From a virus (taxonomy: Duplodnaviria > Caudoviricetes): a DNA stretch of 51,191 nucleotides. The notes below the pieces were generated by a model that saw only the letters and a list, made by a program, of their open reading frames with translations, had not been told where the DNA came from and searched no databases. Every line of letters begins with the position of its first letter. The first letter of the stretch is position 1. The stretch spans positions 1-51,191 of IMG/VR virus record IMGVR_UViG_3300033153_012783; one strand, 5' to 3'. Shown here piece after piece: positions 29,880 to 48,874 of this stretch. Made by a program: the position numbers and the translations under genes.

Positions 29880-30074
29880 TCAATCCGCTTCCACGAACAA
29901 AATCCAATAAATAATGATGTACGGCCAGAGGCATAGAATCATAAATCTGACCGGTCTCGGTAGTTTCACAATATCTTTGGCAAGCGAATCGTGCATGGTG
30001 TCAATTAGATGGAAGAATAAAAATGCGCCGCCTATATGTAGCGCTACCACCCAGATTGTTAAAAATATGATCAC
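29880..30074 (-). CDS. Small two-TM membrane protein
   Basis: Two hydrophobic segments; GGAG RBS. Confidence 0.65.
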   Translation of the reverse strand: MIIFLTIWVVALHIGGAFLFFHLIDTMHDSLAKDIVKLPRPVRFMILCLWPYIIIYWILFVEAD

Positions 30075-30138
30075 ATCAATTTCTCCCTAAATAATTCGGT
30101 ATTAGCCGCACACAACCGAAGCTATGCGCGGCCATTGA

Positions 30139-30363
30139 TCAGAAAGTTGTCGGCTGGGCTATGCCTCGTATCGCCCACATGAAGCCTTGCTGAAGGTTAG
30201 TTTTACCGAGAGCAACATTCCGTTTATCGGTACTCTCCGTGGCTTCCAGTTTGGCGATGAATTCACCACATTTTTCGGCCAATTCTTTGCCTTCGTTCAT
30301 CAGGTCAATTTCTTCCTGTGATAAATCACGGTATCCCTTAATTTTTTGGTGTTGATTATCCAT
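30139..30363 (-). CDS. acb2: Anti-CBASS cyclic-nucleotide sponge, Acb2 family
   Basis: MDNQHQKIKGYRDLSQEEIDLMN...GKTNLQQGFMWAIRGIAQP closely matches the Acb2 pattern as recalled. Confidence 0.9.
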   Translation of the reverse strand: MDNQHQKIKGYRDLSQEEIDLMNEGKELAEKCGEFIAKLEATESTDKRNVALGKTNLQQGFMWAIRGIAQPTTF

Positions 30364-30423
30364 TTTATCCTCGCTTTCAATAATGCCCGAACTTATTCCA
30401 GCATCAGGCAGGCTCTGGTTAAT

Positions 30424-37927: not shown

Positions 37928-37999
37928 TCACCGATTTTTCTATTTTCTGGGGTTGGTAACCGGAATCATAATCCATATGCTCTGGGTTGAATTATAAGC

Positions 38000-38029
38000 G
38001 GGGCGGCGGGAGGGATGGCCTGCCGCCCC
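38000..38029 (+). promoter_or_regulatory. GC-rich hairpin with GGA-containing loop
   Basis: GGGGCGGCGGG-AGGGATGG-CCTGCCGCCCC. Confidence 0.5.
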
Positions 38030-38102
38030 TATTCGCCTAGCCAGTACCGAAACCAGCCGTGGATGGCGAACAGCCGAAGAGTATCATAAGAAAAGGGATA
38101 TC

Positions 38103-38267
38103 ATGAAACATTTGACGCTGGAACAATTAAACCGAAAACAGGAAATTGCCCGCAAATCTTACCATAGGCGAAAAAACAGGCCGGTTTTGACACTACAGCA
38201 ATATGCGTGGCCAGCCGGTAAAACAATCGCGTGGATGGCCTTGTCAATGCCTTGGAGGCGGTGTTAA
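38103..38267 (+). CDS. Small basic protein (54 aa; not in ORF track)
   Basis: AAGGGA RBS; MKHLTLEQLNRKQEIARKSYHRRK... Confidence 0.55.
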   Translation: MKHLTLEQLNRKQEIARKSYHRRKNRPVLTLQQYAWPAGKTIAWMALSMPWRRC

Positions 38268-38274
38268 TGTTCGT

Positions 38275-38370
38275 TGTGTCGGCTCACCTTAGATTGATCC
38301 CTGGGGGACAGCCGAAACCTAACCACGGTTGCCGACACACTTTTTTATTGGTTAGCGTGCTGGGTTAGGA
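38275..38370 (+). promoter_or_regulatory. Structured leader/attenuator of the replication initiator gene
   Basis: TGTGTCGGC/GCCGACACA stem plus T6; internal CCTAACC complementary to two downstream GGTTAG sites. Confidence 0.55.
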
Positions 38371-38381
38371 AAAATAATAAA

Positions 38382-42584: not shown

Positions 42585-43310
42585 ATGACTACGCACTTGG
42601 TAGCTCTATCAGGCGGTAAGGACTCAACGGCAATGGCTATGCGGCTCGCTGAAATAGAGCCGAGAGATTATATCTATTTCTGCACACCCACTGGCGACGA
42701 ACTGCCTGAAATGATTGAGCACTGGAATAACCTCGAATGCATCCTTGGCAAGCCGATCATCAAATTAAAAGCGAAACTTGATCTGCATGGATTAATTGCT
42801 GAATTTTCAGCATTACCAAATCATAGGCAGCGATGGTGTACCAGGATGCTAAAAATTGAAGTGGCAAAAGCATTCTATTTAAAGAATTCACCGGCGATCG
42901 CTTATGTAGGCTTGAGGGCGGATGAAGAAGATCGAAAAGGTGGCATATATGGTGATATTGTCGATCAGAAATATCCAATGCGTGAATGGGGTTGGGATAT
43001 AAATGACGTCAAAAACTATCTGTATGAGAAGAATGTACAGATCCCAGAAAGGACGGATTGTGCGCAATGTTATGAACAAAGGCTGGGCGAATGGTGGGAT
43101 TTATGGAAAATTCATCCTGAATTATATGCAAATGCAGAAGCTCAAGAAGAAAAATATGGCCATACATTTCGAAGTGATACCAGAGATACTTGGCCAGCAA
43201 GCCTTAAATTAATGCGCGCTAGATTCGAATGTGGTGAAATACCAAGAGGATCCAGGAATCAAGAGGATTTGTTTGGCTATAATTCGAGATGCAGAGCATG
43301 TTCTTTATAA
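42585..43310 (+). CDS. PAPS-reductase-family (PP-loop) protein
   Basis: VALSGGKDSTAM, RWCTRMLK, VGLRADE..R; start moved to MTTHLV after AAGGA. Confidence 0.88.
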   Translation: MTTHLVALSGGKDSTAMAMRLAEIEPRDYIYFCTPTGDELPEMIEHWNNLECILGKPIIKLKAKLDLHGLIAEFSALPNHRQRWCTRMLKIEVAKAFYLKNSPAIAYVGLRADEEDRKGGIYGDIVDQKYPMREWGWDINDVKNYLYEKNVQIPERTDCAQCYEQRLGEWWDLWKIHPELYANAEAQEEKYGHTFRSDTRDTWPASLKLMRARFECGEIPRGSRNQEDLFGYNSRCRACSL

Positions 43311-43327
43311 TTTAATTGGAGATAATT

Positions 43328-43681
43328 ATGGAAACGAAAGGCACAGCATTAGCAAGAATTTTAAATTCTGAAATTGATGGTCAAGTTGATGATAATACGT
43401 CGAGAGGCGATGTTATCGCCAGGATGGCAAGGGCAGCCGGAATATCGGCATCAACTGTTGGACAAATATTGGGTGAAGATGTCAACTGCCCACCACTTAA
43501 TAGGCTCGAAGGATTCGCAGAAGTTCTCGGGATTTCAATGTCACGCTTAAGATCAGCTGCCGAATCAGATGGTTGCGAATATGTTGAAGAAAGCGGCAAT
43601 GCGAAGTGTGCCGTTTTAAATCTCGAGTCGAAAATTATAAACGATTTGAATGAAATGACAGAATCGATAAAAAACAATTAG
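43328..43681 (+). CDS. XRE-like HTH protein with protease-like C-terminal helix
   Basis: MARAAGISASTVGQIL...P.L..L...A.VLGIS; GGAG RBS before METK. Confidence 0.8.
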   Translation: METKGTALARILNSEIDGQVDDNTSRGDVIARMARAAGISASTVGQILGEDVNCPPLNRLEGFAEVLGISMSRLRSAAESDGCEYVEESGNAKCAVLNLESKIINDLNEMTESIKNN

Positions 43682-43685
43682 ATAA

Positions 43686-43699
43686 GTTTCACGTGAAAC
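43686..43699. promoter_or_regulatory. parS-like palindrome
   Basis: GTTTCACGTGAAAC; 14/16 match to the consensus TGTTTCACGTGAAACA. Confidence 0.7.
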
Positions 43700-43710
43700 C
43701 ATAAGGCAAG

Positions 43711-43751
43711 AAAAAGCCGCTTGACCGGGGGAGACCAAGCGGCTATCTTTT
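43711..43751. terminator. Rho-independent terminator, strongest on the minus strand and possibly bidirectional
   Basis: AAAA-AGCCGCTTG...CAAGCGGCT-ATCTTTT. Confidence 0.75.
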
Positions 43752-43815
43752 ACAGCCTGTTCAGCAGAGTTTGCGCTCTCTGAACTCGAAGGGCTTCAAG
43801 GGGCCGATCGCGTTA
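43711..43815 (-). ncRNA. Candidate ~105-nt small RNA
   Basis: Lies between a minus-strand promoter and terminator; internal GTTCAG/CTGAAC hairpin; no ORF. Confidence 0.5.
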
Positions 43816-43821
43816 ACCCGC

Positions 43822-43849
43822 ATTATAGTAATCTCCCCAATGAAATCAA
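43822..43849 (-). promoter_or_regulatory. Sigma70-like promoter on the minus strand
   Basis: TTGATT-N16-TATAAT. Confidence 0.55.
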
Positions 43850-43850
43850 G

Positions 43851-44200
43851 CCCTTCCGGTATTTATCGGGACGGGGCCAACCACCAGCCGATTTAAGCCG
43901 TGATATTGATCCTACTGGGTTACTCAAAGGATCAGCGTGGGCGTAAAACCTAGAGCGCGAGGGGTGGAAGGTCACAAACTTCCTAATAGTCTGGGTAAAG
44001 TCCGGCCATCGTGACAGGTGCCTGACCCGTATAACAACTGTGATTCTGAGAGTCATGATACGGATAAAGCGCGACACTTGAGATTAAGTTCTTAGGGTGG
44101 CGTATTTCCGGACCCAAGCTGCTCAAACTGAACGTCATATAATTAACCAAACAACCTAAATTTAGCTGATCGCCTAACAGCACCTAAATACCGAAAAGGG
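43851..44200 (+). ncRNA. Candidate ~350-nt multi-stem structured RNA, family unrecognised
   Basis: Long-range closing stem plus at least five nested helices; G-U pairs favour the plus strand; no credible ORF. Confidence 0.55.
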
Positions 44201-44204
44201 ATAA

Positions 44205-44672
44205 GTGATGGAATATTACACAAGCGATATGATTGGAAGTGGGCAACACGGGATTTGTGCCAAATGCAAGAAAGAGCCAACCAAAGAAGGTCATGATGGT
44301 TGTTTAGGCACCCTGCCAGGTGTAATGAATGCCTGTTGTGGTCATGGGCAAGCGAATCAAGCGTATGTTCAATTTTGGGACAGAATTTGTATCCGTGGTC
44401 GCTCTGCAATCATAATTATGACGGAATTAAAAAATTCAAAGCCAGATTTTACAGCCGGCATAGGTGCAGAAATGACGATTGTTGATCCAGCCGCACTTGA
44501 AATCATCAAGAATAAAGCCATGATCAGCCTATATCCATGGATCGGTAAGGGCCCAATAATATTCAACGGTAAAACCATTGGATATTCAGATGGTAAGGGA
44601 ACGATAAAATGGGAAAATATTAAATATACTCCAGGAAAATCAGAACTGGTTAATGTCATGCCAACCGCTTGA
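44205..44672 (+). CDS. Cys-rich hypothetical protein
   Basis: CAKC...GHDGCLGTLPGVMNACCGHG. Confidence 0.75.
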   Translation: MMEYYTSDMIGSGQHGICAKCKKEPTKEGHDGCLGTLPGVMNACCGHGQANQAYVQFWDRICIRGRSAIIIMTELKNSKPDFTAGIGAEMTIVDPAALEIIKNKAMISLYPWIGKGPIIFNGKTIGYSDGKGTIKWENIKYTPGKSELVNVMPTA

Positions 44673-44748
44673 AATAGCAGAAGAATATTAATCTGTGCTA
44701 TAAATACAATATTGACATATTAGTAACCGGACAAATGAGTCAAATATT

Positions 44749-45177
44749 GTGGCCAAACAAAACAAAACATCGAAAGCAAAAGCTGGGAAGCAAGAGAAGC
44801 AGGAAAAGGCTCTCAAACTCAGGATTGAAGGAAATTCATATCGTGCAATAGCAAAAAAAATGGGATGCAGCAGAACACAGGCTCATACCTATGTTGTTGA
44901 AGCGCTTAAAGAAAGTACCTCAAGGATTGCTAAAAATGCTGATGATCTGCGCGATCTTGAGTTGGAACGACTTGATACTCTAATTAAGGGTTTGTATCCA
45001 AAAGCAAAAAAAGGCGATCCGCAGGCTGTTGATAAAATTCTAAAAGTAATGGATCAGCGCCAGAAGCTGACCGGCATTCAGGCCGCTCCGCAGGTACTGG
45101 GTGAAATCATCGCTGAGACTGGATCCGTTGATAAACCAAGCCTGAGAGTCCGTGTTACCTATGTTAAACCAGAGTGA
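44749..45177 (+). CDS. terS: Terminase small subunit (HTH type)
   Basis: ALKLRIEG.SYRAIA..MG.S; ELERLD.L; directly upstream of terL. Confidence 0.8.
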   Translation: MAKQNKTSKAKAGKQEKQEKALKLRIEGNSYRAIAKKMGCSRTQAHTYVVEALKESTSRIAKNADDLRDLELERLDTLIKGLYPKAKKGDPQAVDKILKVMDQRQKLTGIQAAPQVLGEIIAETGSVDKPSLRVRVTYVKPE

Positions 45178-46660: not shown

Positions 46661-48874
46661 ATGGCTATTACCTACTCAGCCGGTGCCGGTACTGCAATCA
46701 CCTCGTTTCTGGTGACTCAGGTCCTGGGCGATCAATCCCAGCAAACAGGAAACAATACTATTGTCCTTGATGACATTCCGTCTGCGGCCACTGGATACGG
46801 CGGCAATGTAGGCGATGGCACGCTTGGAATTGGGGATTCTTACGATACTCGTCGGATAATGATTGGCCGTGGTGGCACGATTCAAGAGCGGATTGTCATC
46901 AATGATGCCGCAGGCACGGGCAATACCAGAATATTAACCGTCCATGAGGATTGGGATACAAACCCTGTCCAGACTACCGATACCGTTGATGTTTATTATG
47001 AGATCGCAGATGTTGAAGATGGCGGTGCAGGCGGCGGTATTTCATTTGCTACCCGTACTGGTTTATGGACTCTGACCCGTATTATCACCATTGGTAACGG
47101 CACTGATCCAGCCGGACTTGGAATGCATGGCGGCCAGGCGCTCGAGTGTGCTGATCGTGGTGCTGCAGATTCATTCCTGGTCAAAAATAACGGGTTTTTC
47201 CGTTTTGGCTATTATTCTGGAGGCCTGCCGATCTCCGGTGGAATTATCACGTTAACGGCTGCTACTGATGATGAGCCGGCGCAGAGTTTCGAATCAGGTG
47301 CCGATTCCGCATTTCTTGATACCTTAATCTGGGCGCAGGTCGCTACTCTTAGCCAAATCAGCAATACAGGCGCGGTTGTCTTATATGACAAAACCAAGCT
47401 ATTGAAGGCCACAGAGGAATGTGAATTATACGGCGATGCGGTCACTGATCTGAGTGTCTCAGGCCTCGGCGCAACTACTGAAATTGTCAGAGTAGATTCA
47501 GCAACCGTATGCCTGGCTTTAGTATTGGTTGACGTACAGGTCTTGGATTCCGTGGCCGATACCACAACCGAAACGATAGAGCTGACCGGCGTAGTATTTT
47601 CTGGTGTGCCTGGCTATGTCGATGTTCGCCAGAATAAAACGTGGGATCTGATTGATCCGGTATGGGATGTCACTACCTATACGGAGCTGACTTGGACGGG
47701 AACCAGTACAGGCAACGAGCTCAACGATAAGCGAAGTATTACCGCTGTGGTGCAGGAGGCTGATGGCACAAAATTGCAAGATGCTCTGGTTAATATTTAT
47801 GAAAATACCCAACTTGCCGATCTTGTTCAGGAGCTCGTAACAGATTCAAACGGTCTTGCCACAGGCTCATTTATATACAAAAAACATGCCACAAATTCAG
47901 TAACAACGACCTATGGTGGTCATGCGCTGCAGTCAGGAAAATGGTTATATCTTCCGTTTGTATCAGCGCAGGTATCAACAGAAAATTTTAATGGATCAAT
48001 TGTCTTATCTGACGATACAAATATTGTCCAAACAACTCAGGCAACAGCTATTTCTGACGGTTCAACCATTACCTGGAATGAAGATACTAATCCAAGCTCA
48101 ATTGTCGTATTTTCCGCAGGCACAGGCACGCTGTCGGTCGGAGACACGATAACGGGCGGAACCTCTAGCGCGACAGGCATTGTTACGCAGATTTTAGATG
48201 GTGATTCGGTGGCAGGAACTGTTCACATGAAGACGAGAAATGCGAATGCATTCACTGCCGGTGGCGAATCTTTGAGTAATGGTGCAGGCTGGACGGCAAC
48301 GATGACCGCGGCATCTGAACAAAGATTTAGTATATGGGCTGATGCCGTTACAAAAAGCTTCCAGACAGTCTACGATTACTGGGCTGCTAGAATGACAGAA
48401 ACAACGCTACTTTCTGCAGGAGAATTAATATGGGAATGGTGTCGATCTGCGCAATCCCAGCCGCTTTATAACACTGGAGCAAGTTTTTTCACTGAAAGAT
48501 CAAATGCAAAAGGTATTATTATTGTAAATGGTGGCGCTGGAGCAATTGATTATTTTACTGATGATGCCGGTGGAACATATACCCCACCAGATACGGTAAC
48601 ATTAACGATACAGGTAGATGATTCAGGTGGTAATGCGGTTGTTGGTGCAAGATGTAGAATTGAAAAAACATCTGATGGCAGTCTTATTTCAAACGGATCA
48701 ACGGATGGTTCTGGCGCATATACCGATTCTTATGTCTACACTACTGATGTAGCTGTTAATATTAAAGTGAGACTCAAAGGATATAAGCCATTCAGAACAA
48801 CTGGAACAATTTCTTCGGCAGGACTTACAGTTGGTGTAACATTCCAAAATGACAATATAGTGGACTTACCATAG
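46661..48874 (+). CDS. Large acidic putative virion protein (737 aa)
   Basis: G/T/D-rich; VGDTITGGTSSATG repeat unit; Ig/carboxypeptidase-regulatory-like C-terminal domain. Confidence 0.8.
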   Translation: MAITYSAGAGTAITSFLVTQVLGDQSQQTGNNTIVLDDIPSAATGYGGNVGDGTLGIGDSYDTRRIMIGRGGTIQERIVINDAAGTGNTRILTVHEDWDTNPVQTTDTVDVYYEIADVEDGGAGGGISFATRTGLWTLTRIITIGNGTDPAGLGMHGGQALECADRGAADSFLVKNNGFFRFGYYSGGLPISGGIITLTAATDDEPAQSFESGADSAFLDTLIWAQVATLSQISNTGAVVLYDKTKLLKATEECELYGDAVTDLSVSGLGATTEIVRVDSATVCLALVLVDVQVLDSVADTTTETIELTGVVFSGVPGYVDVRQNKTWDLIDPVWDVTTYTELTWTGTSTGNELNDKRSITAVVQEADGTKLQDALVNIYENTQLADLVQELVTDSNGLATGSFIYKKHATNSVTTTYGGHALQSGKWLYLPFVSAQVSTENFNGSIVLSDDTNIVQTTQATAISDGSTITWNEDTNPSSIVVFSAGTGTLSVGDTITGGTSSATGIVTQILDGDSVAGTVHMKTRNANAFTAGGESLSNGAGWTATMTAASEQRFSIWADAVTKSFQTVYDYWAARMTETTLLSAGELIWEWCRSAQSQPLYNTGASFFTERSNAKGIIIVNGGAGAIDYFTDDAGGTYTPPDTVTLTIQVDDSGGNAVVGARCRIEKTSDGSLISNGSTDGSGAYTDSYVYTTDVAVNIKVRLKGYKPFRTTGTISSAGLTVGVTFQNDNIVDLP

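Follow-up and report, generated by a model that had tools for sequence, protein, structure and literature searches.

What does the longest gene-free stretch of a phage genome hold when it lies just ahead of the packaging genes, and could it give rise to a structured RNA? The question is raised by IMGVR_UViG_3300033153_012783, a complete virus record of 51,191 bp that carries a terminal repeat of 114 bp. The whole stretch of 51,191 nucleotides is called the window here, and its coordinates are used throughout. A first-pass annotation had proposed a structured RNA of 350 nt (43851–44200) in the largest intergenic gap, closed by its own ends over the ribosome-binding site (RBS) of the next gene. 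The location holds up. The gap at 43682–44204 comprises 523 nt, and no other stretch devoid of plausible genes is longer once two minus-strand ORFs inside it are discounted; neither of these matches Pfam or PHROG, and both were treated as spurious. The next ORF-free stretches (ORFs of at least 75 aa) are at 29935–30423 (489 nt) and 37928–38381 (454 nt), the latter being the divergent junction between leftward and rightward genes.

Gene context and coding content of the gap

The flanking gene content (Table 1) places the gap at the border between the early or replication genes and the packaging genes. In lambdoid phages, the late control region occupies this position. The gene order of the window is lambdoid-like, and the gap is probably a control region between the two sets of genes. 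The 121-aa protein encoded just before it has weak matches to Cro/C1-type HTH domains, all below the Pfam cut-offs, and falls in one PHROG without an assigned function. The 155-aa protein encoded just after it has no Pfam or PHROG match. Its Cys-rich N-terminal part (about 75 aa) has 312 relatives at E <= 0.001, and these carry no functional name (at most "hypothetical protein") and no Pfam domain. In the only IMG/VR relative with a similar terminase that was found (locus L002/L082, with a TerL 84% identical), the counterpart of this protein is shorter, with 105 aa. Two ORFs of the structural region, at 46661–48874 (737 aa) and 891–2486 (531 aa), also lack Pfam and PHROG matches. The heptamer TAAATAC occurs 18 times in the whole window against 7.0 expected copies, a number reached by none of 100 shuffles; three copies are in or beside the gap, at 43859 (minus strand), 44185 and 44701.

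Table 1. Features in and around the gap, in window coordinates
Feature	Position	Strand	Remarks
O-like replication initiator	38382	+	upstream of the gap
Holliday-junction resolvase	39674	+	upstream of the gap
PAPS-reductase-like gene	42489	+	upstream of the gap
121-aa HTH protein	43316–43681	+	last gene before the gap
Hairpin terminator ending the upstream operon	43713–43750		inverted repeat; U-runs on both strands; left edge of the module
Sigma-70-like promoter match	43721–43749	+	TTGACC, 17 nt, TATCTT; 9 of 12 consensus positions
Hypervariable stretch within the module	43752–43846		substitutions, indels and replacement in relatives
Best-conserved primary sequence	43847–43944	+	blocks 43847–43891 and 43908–43944; predicted hairpins 43857–43900 and 43907–43934
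5' arm of the proposed closing stem	43851–43865	+	complementarity real; not supported as a conserved helix
Structured core	43950–44127	+	closing helices 43953–63/44113–24 and 43990–95/44107–12; four hairpins enclosed
Hairpin P1 (GGAAG/CTTCC)	43966–43983	+	compensatory pair in relatives
Hairpin P3	44000–44026	+	pair-keeping changes at 44001–44025
Hairpin P4 (CCGTAT/ATACGG and 8-bp tip)	44027–44063	+	three G-U pairs in the tip; changes on both sides
Hairpin P5 (includes CACTTGAGA/TCTTAGGGTG)	44069–44103	+	predicted in the 350-, 511- and 178-nt folds
Gene-start module	44133–44204	+	unstructured (z -0.51); TATAAT 44138–43; RBS 44195–201; common to L082
155-aa Cys-rich protein (gene 44205)	GTG 44205/ATG 44208 to 44672	+	first gene after the gap
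Small HTH protein in the small-terminase (TerS-like) position	44749		downstream of the gap
Large terminase TerL, Terminase_3 family (Pfam)	45152		downstream of the gap, followed by large structural ORFs

The gap is non-coding. Stop codons interrupt all six frames, and the region must be untranslated because its relatives carry 1-nt indels at 43892, 44057 and 44116, as well as at 44006, the last being read by hand from loose ends of contigs. The period-3 pattern of substitutions is absent, and a hand count over the three phases gave 8, 9 and 4. A collection of 250 related loci was gathered by means of TerL, the 155-aa protein and the HTH protein in IMG/VR, the 155-aa protein in metagenome contigs, and TerL in genomes. 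A six-frame tblastn search of the gap against these loci returned nothing beyond the last 60–70 nt, and the same last 60–70 nt, in L002/L082, were the only matches in blastn and nhmmer searches.

No known RNA family was recognized. Rfam 15 (4227 models), whose models covered tmRNA, RNase P, 6S, group I/II introns, HEARO, GOLLD, ROOL and riboswitches, gave no match in the whole window at gathering thresholds. At E <= 10, five noise matches appeared in 43600–44300, the best with 19.2 bits against a gathering score of 60. ARAGORN found no tRNA or tmRNA gene in the whole window, and an Rfam search of L082 returned nothing. The first-pass annotation, which could fit the gap to no tmRNA, RNase P, 6S, group I/II intron or HEARO and had named an Rfam search as a check, is thereby confirmed on this point. 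Two further identities were tried and dropped. Hairpin P4 was considered as domain V of a group II intron, and Rfam gave no intron match. A MITE or another small mobile element with terminal inverted repeats was also considered; the sequence has a single genomic copy, the repeat arms are apart in relatives, and the edges of the module described below (43708 and 44145) differ from the ends of the inverted repeat.

A sharp-edged module in cold-seep phages

Relatives of the gap are fragmentary contigs from three cold-seep metagenome runs (X1, X2 and X3) of two studies, and they represent few haplotypes. All three are DNA runs that contain a small share of the words of the sequence, and the run listing for this sequence included none of RNA. 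The contigs were compared over 43300–44800, with no cover at 43453–43705 and over much of the 155-aa gene. Absences were read only where a contig runs on in unlike sequence or joins across. The block 43708–44145 is present in contigs from the three runs at about 87–95% identity, and its flanks are unlike; the gap is covered by contigs, and most of the flanking coding sequence is not. The left edge, at 43706–43708, is common to X1 record 2, X3 record 11 and X2 record 8, with unlike letters before it. Records 12, 14, 15 and 16 of X3 tile 43803–44131. As read from these alignments, the block is a non-coding module with sharp edges that is common to cold-seep phages with differing flanks.

The most informative contig is X2 record 8 (7811 nt, depth 21). 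It begins with 255 unlike letters left of 43708 and then follows 43708–44048 with 44 substitutions and eight gaps. The stretch 44049–44116, which includes the 3' strands of the long-range helices, is replaced by 65 unlike letters; the contig matches again over 44117–44145 and continues, after seven letters, with 44690–44707. Gene 44205 is thus missing from this contig, where 44145 joins to 44690, and therefore the element is located just before the TerS-proximal sequence. Judged by this join, gene 44205 is an accessory insert between the conserved module and the small terminase gene.

Conservation inside the module is uneven. In the hypervariable stretch, X2 record 8 has at least 21 substitutions and seven indels among the differences listed, and X1 record 2 has 91 unlike letters in place of 43752–43840. 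The two blocks of the best-conserved part show no difference in the covering contigs, among the differences listed, and the fold of 43847–43944 is unremarkable (z -1.04). A 26-nt block at 43803–43828, which contains two short palindromes, recurs in X2 record 8 and X3 records 12 and 13 and persists even where the sequence on its right has been replaced. The real feature is plausibly a core of about 180 nt together with the conserved 100 nt or so before it, inside a mobile module of about 440 nt.

The element is dispensable, because it is missing or unrecognizable in L082 and in X3 record 13, both of which keep flanking pieces but show no copy of the element at 80% identity or more. The 344-nt gap that L082 has of its own folds unremarkably (z -0.84). 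Searches outside the cold-seep contigs were empty. Distant blastn with the gap gave no match in GenBank phages. In IMG/VR, one exact 23-mer was not found, two 18-mers gave three chance matches (18–21 nt alike), and a scan with a degenerate 25-mer found nothing. The covariance model R1, built from the core of the window alone, returned from 253 loci and the window a self-match and one match of 10.3 bits (E 2.5).

Folding and pair-keeping substitutions

The core folds stably and asymmetrically with respect to the strands. The plus strand has a minimum free energy (MFE) of -63.0 kcal/mol (z -3.32; 0 of 200 shuffles as good), compared with -45.5 kcal/mol for the minus strand (z -0.81; 36 of 200), a difference of 17.5 kcal/mol. 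This asymmetry arises because 9 of the 56 core pairs are G-U and therefore indicates the plus strand; the plus-strand G-U pairs had been noticed in the first-pass annotation and are confirmed. The helices of 43953–44124 recur when 350, 511 or 178 nt are folded. When 425 genome windows of 178 nt are compared on a grid, the core comes fourth (z -3.79 with the 30 shuffles used there). Fold energy alone is nevertheless suggestive and not decisive, because ten of the 425 windows, mostly coding, are comparable (z <= -3.29) and because the grid was anchored on the core itself.

The larger form is a different matter. The helices listed in the first-pass annotation are all present in the sequence. The ends 43851–43865 and 44185–44200 are indeed complementary (15 nt, 13 of 15 positions or 87%), and the 3' arm does overlie the RBS of gene 44205 (AAAGGGA ahead of GTG 44205/ATG 44208). 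The stem also belongs to the MFE structure when exactly 43851–44200 is folded. However, the plus strand of this region (-105.4 kcal/mol) reaches a z of only -1.88, with 3 of 100 shuffles as good, and the minus strand -1.39. Among 46 windows of 350 nt taken arbitrarily from the genome, five have z <= -1.88 (background mean -0.42, sd 1.30), so that the expected advantage over dinucleotide shuffles falls within the genome background. The genome contains 60 inverted repeats (at least 14 nt, within 500 nt); the closing stem is one of them and ranks below the 25 longest. With added 5' context it disappears: the fold of 43700–44210 (z -2.55; 0 of 100 shuffles as good) does not form it, and the 5' arm region makes a perfect 9-bp pairing of 43788–96 with 43848–56 instead.

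The relatives also separate the two arms. X2 record 8 keeps the 5' arm and has neither the 3' arm nor gene 44205. On the plus strand of L082, no sequence like the 5' arm was found with up to three mismatches. The gene-start module is 93% identical to L082 2323–2381 over 59 nt (44144–44202), nhmmer extends the match to 44133, and the L082 copy comes after a 141-aa ORF. The motif AAATACCGAAAAGGGAT precedes two L082 genes (2364–2379 and 2655–2670) without any 5' arm, and for this reason the 3' arm is to be regarded as a generic gene-start module. The same motif, followed by 5–9 nt and a start codon, stands before several small genes in the lineage; in the window it is at 44185–44201. A 350-nt unit closed over the RBS is thus unsupported by the fold, by the background and by the relatives.

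Substitutions in the core were examined by mapping the variant letters visible in the contigs onto pairs predicted from one sequence. Sixteen variant positions are visible in 43950–44065: seven are unpaired, eight belong to four pairs that are still paired, and one breaks a pair. When 16 substitutions were placed at random in 200,000 trials, at least three compensated pairs occurred with a probability of 6.8e-4 and at least four with 1.5e-5. By type, the core has one firm compensatory pair, two probable ones, one change from U-A to U-G and one broken pair, drawn from few haplotypes.

The firm pair is in P1, where A43969>G occurs together with T43980>C on X1 record 4, X2 record 8 and X3 record 15, and neither change is present on X1 record 3 or X3 record 14. 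Judged from these contigs, this is an A-U to G-C exchange on single molecules, the sole pair of which this can be said; a further change at 43978 falls in the loop. P4 probably holds two compensatory pairs. Loose ends of three contigs (X1 records 3 and 4, X3 record 15), read by hand, show its 5' changes (G44029>A and T44030>C); its 3' changes (C44061>T and A44060>G), read in the same way, come from X3 record 14, again from a loose end. Because the two sides belong to different contigs, that they pair within one molecule is only inferred; a molecule with the 3' changes alone would still be paired via G-U. In P3, the pair 44001–44025 changes from U-A to U-G in X1 and X3 contigs, and 44001 becomes C in X2. 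This T44001>C fits the local hairpin 44000–26 better than the long-range TCCGG/CCGGA helix of the first-pass annotation, which is not upheld. One P3 pair is broken by G44020>A, beside a 1-nt deletion. P5 has no visible variant letters in the contigs. In the sequence before the core, the deletion at 43892 and the changes at 43896 and 43905 fall in loops, and T43907>G breaks a terminal pair.

The hairpins GGAAG/CTTCC and CCGTAT/ATACGG, both of which had been listed at first reading, carry the compensatory changes. Base pairs of the core appear to be under selection, and related phages appear to keep the pairing by matched mutations.

Readings of the element

The signals around the core bear on how it could be expressed. 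In a scan of 43300–44500, the sole terminator-like call is at 43744–43715 on the minus strand, and 43751–44204 contains no terminator-like site on the plus strand. The match at 43721–49 is the only plus-strand sigma-70-like match upstream of the core, and it overlaps the conserved terminator block. By its consensus match, it is a candidate start for a rightward leader beginning near 43756. On the minus strand, there is a strong sigma-70-like match at 43849–43822 (TTGATT, 16 nt, TATAAT; 10 of 12 positions), which together with the terminator at 43744–43715 would give a leftward RNA of about 110 nt. The body of this putative RNA (43752–43840) is hypervariable among the cold-seep relatives, and the terminator block is conserved.

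Our preferred reading, held tentatively, takes the core to be a new structured leader or ncRNA module that acts in cis within the late control region. The core has the orientation of the late genes and, in both visible contexts, lies directly before the first late or packaging genes. Because no terminator follows it, the core would form the structured leader of the late or packaging transcript. Its RNA would be made in the direction of the packaging genes, starting at the promoter-like site 43721–49 or by read-through of the terminator. Such a leader might act in cis on the amount of transcript that reaches, or survives into, the packaging genes.

In its way of working, the element would come closest to the late-operon leaders of phages, either of the lambda or of the HK022 put type. 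The lambdoid late operon has a promoter-proximal leader RNA that is read through under an antiterminator. Common to both are the site between the replication/nin-like and the late genes, the orientation of the late genes, and a non-coding stretch of a few hundred nucleotides after a small regulator gene. However, the scanned region has no intrinsic terminator on the plus strand, either within the element or behind it, the neighbouring HTH protein has no Q-family domain in Pfam, and the predicted structure is a multi-hairpin junction and not a short terminated RNA. The put RNA of HK022 is a cis-acting antiterminator with two stem-loops and about 70 nt, situated just after the promoter. Both would be structured phage-leader RNAs that act in cis without the need for a separate gene. 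By description, and in contrast to put, the core has 178 nt and five or six helices, and some 200 nt separate it from the only promoter-like site.

From IMG/VR, candidate structured RNAs lying ahead of the large-terminase genes of uncultivated phages have been described (PMC10690425), and the present element may be one of them. These motifs resemble it in being conserved, structured and intergenic, in lying consistently upstream of large-terminase genes and in their data source; the terminase family named for them differs from the Terminase_3 family found here. Full-text searches of the literature returned no description of such an RNA before Terminase_3 genes. Members of Rfam such as GOLLD, ROOL and HEARO are likewise phage-borne, structured and without an assigned function. 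They gave no match at E <= 10, and the core is much smaller and so far narrow in distribution.

The conserved sequence could also work at the level of DNA, either as a pac region bound by the small terminase or as an activator-dependent late promoter with upstream binding sites, and the hairpins would then be incidental or protein-binding dyads. The position directly upstream of the terminase genes, and before TerS-proximal sequence in X2 record 8, agrees with this, as does the Terminase_3 family of TerL; in phages with such terminases, headful packaging often starts at a pac site close to the TerS gene. In 43847–43944, the most conserved part, it is the sequence that is kept and not the structure. 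In addition, the TATAAT at 44138–43 is located exactly where the homology of X2 record 8 stops and that of L082 starts, and no -35 match accompanies it. Given this junction, the packaging genes may have their own promoter downstream of the core. If TATAAT is the real late promoter, as it could be, the transcript would begin downstream of the core. A pac region of the SPP1 type likewise comprises a few hundred non-coding bp directly before a small terminase gene, in a phage with a Terminase_3 large subunit. However, such a pac works as duplex DNA and predicts neither strand-specific G-U pairs nor compensatory changes, whereas in the core the pair-keeping changes run via G-U intermediates and the nine G-U pairs are sensible on one strand only. 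Notable direct or tandem repeats, as expected for multiple TerS sites, are absent, and X2 record 8 retains the element although its TerS region is unlike at 80% or more. Nothing specific speaks for a structured single-stranded DNA element or for a packaging site, and a DNA-level role is considered unlikely.

It is also quite unlikely that the block is an ordinary spacer that was recently exchanged and is conserved only through its youth, with the structure and the few paired changes being due to chance. The ordinary z of the whole region, the similar z of coding windows at 178 nt, the small number of independent haplotypes and the replacement of part of the core in X2 record 8 all speak for such a spacer. 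Chance nevertheless has difficulty in accounting for three or more compensated pairs at the probability given above, for a 17.5 kcal/mol difference between strands and for the concentration of substitutions in predicted loops.

An RNA acting in trans is improbable. The module would then be a free-standing ncRNA gene, a non-coding moron acting, for example, on host defence or host RNA. In favour of this, the module moves between phages as a sharply bounded unit, close relatives lack it, and it carries its own terminator block and promoter-like sites. However, neither a plus-strand terminator nor another defined 3' end follows the core, no known phage ncRNA family is matched, and the element stands just upstream of late genes in both visible contexts. 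The closed 350-nt RNA, in which the ends would pair as a cis-switch masking the RBS of gene 44205, is very improbable: the complementarity of its arms and its appearance in one exact fold are outweighed by the loss of the stem in longer context, the 60 comparable inverted repeats, the separation of the arms in relatives and the generic nature of the 3' arm.

Returning to the cis-acting late leader, a stronger version can be formulated. The core and the conserved block upstream of it might constitute a phage RNA of a new class, one that controls entry into late or packaging gene expression and that phages of cold-seep bacteria exchange as a cassette, independently of its neighbours. We regard this version as doubtful. 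Such a gating RNA could modify RNA polymerase in the manner of put, or it could be a leader that senses a ligand or a protein.

Thousands of phage RNA motifs have been predicted, and at present the core is one more such candidate, with comparative support that is real but thin. Late-gene control is understood in only a few model phages. If the preferred reading is true, an RNA swapped at the boundary of early and late genes would provide a handle on this switch in uncultivated phages of marine sediments, and its compact fold would be worth solving.
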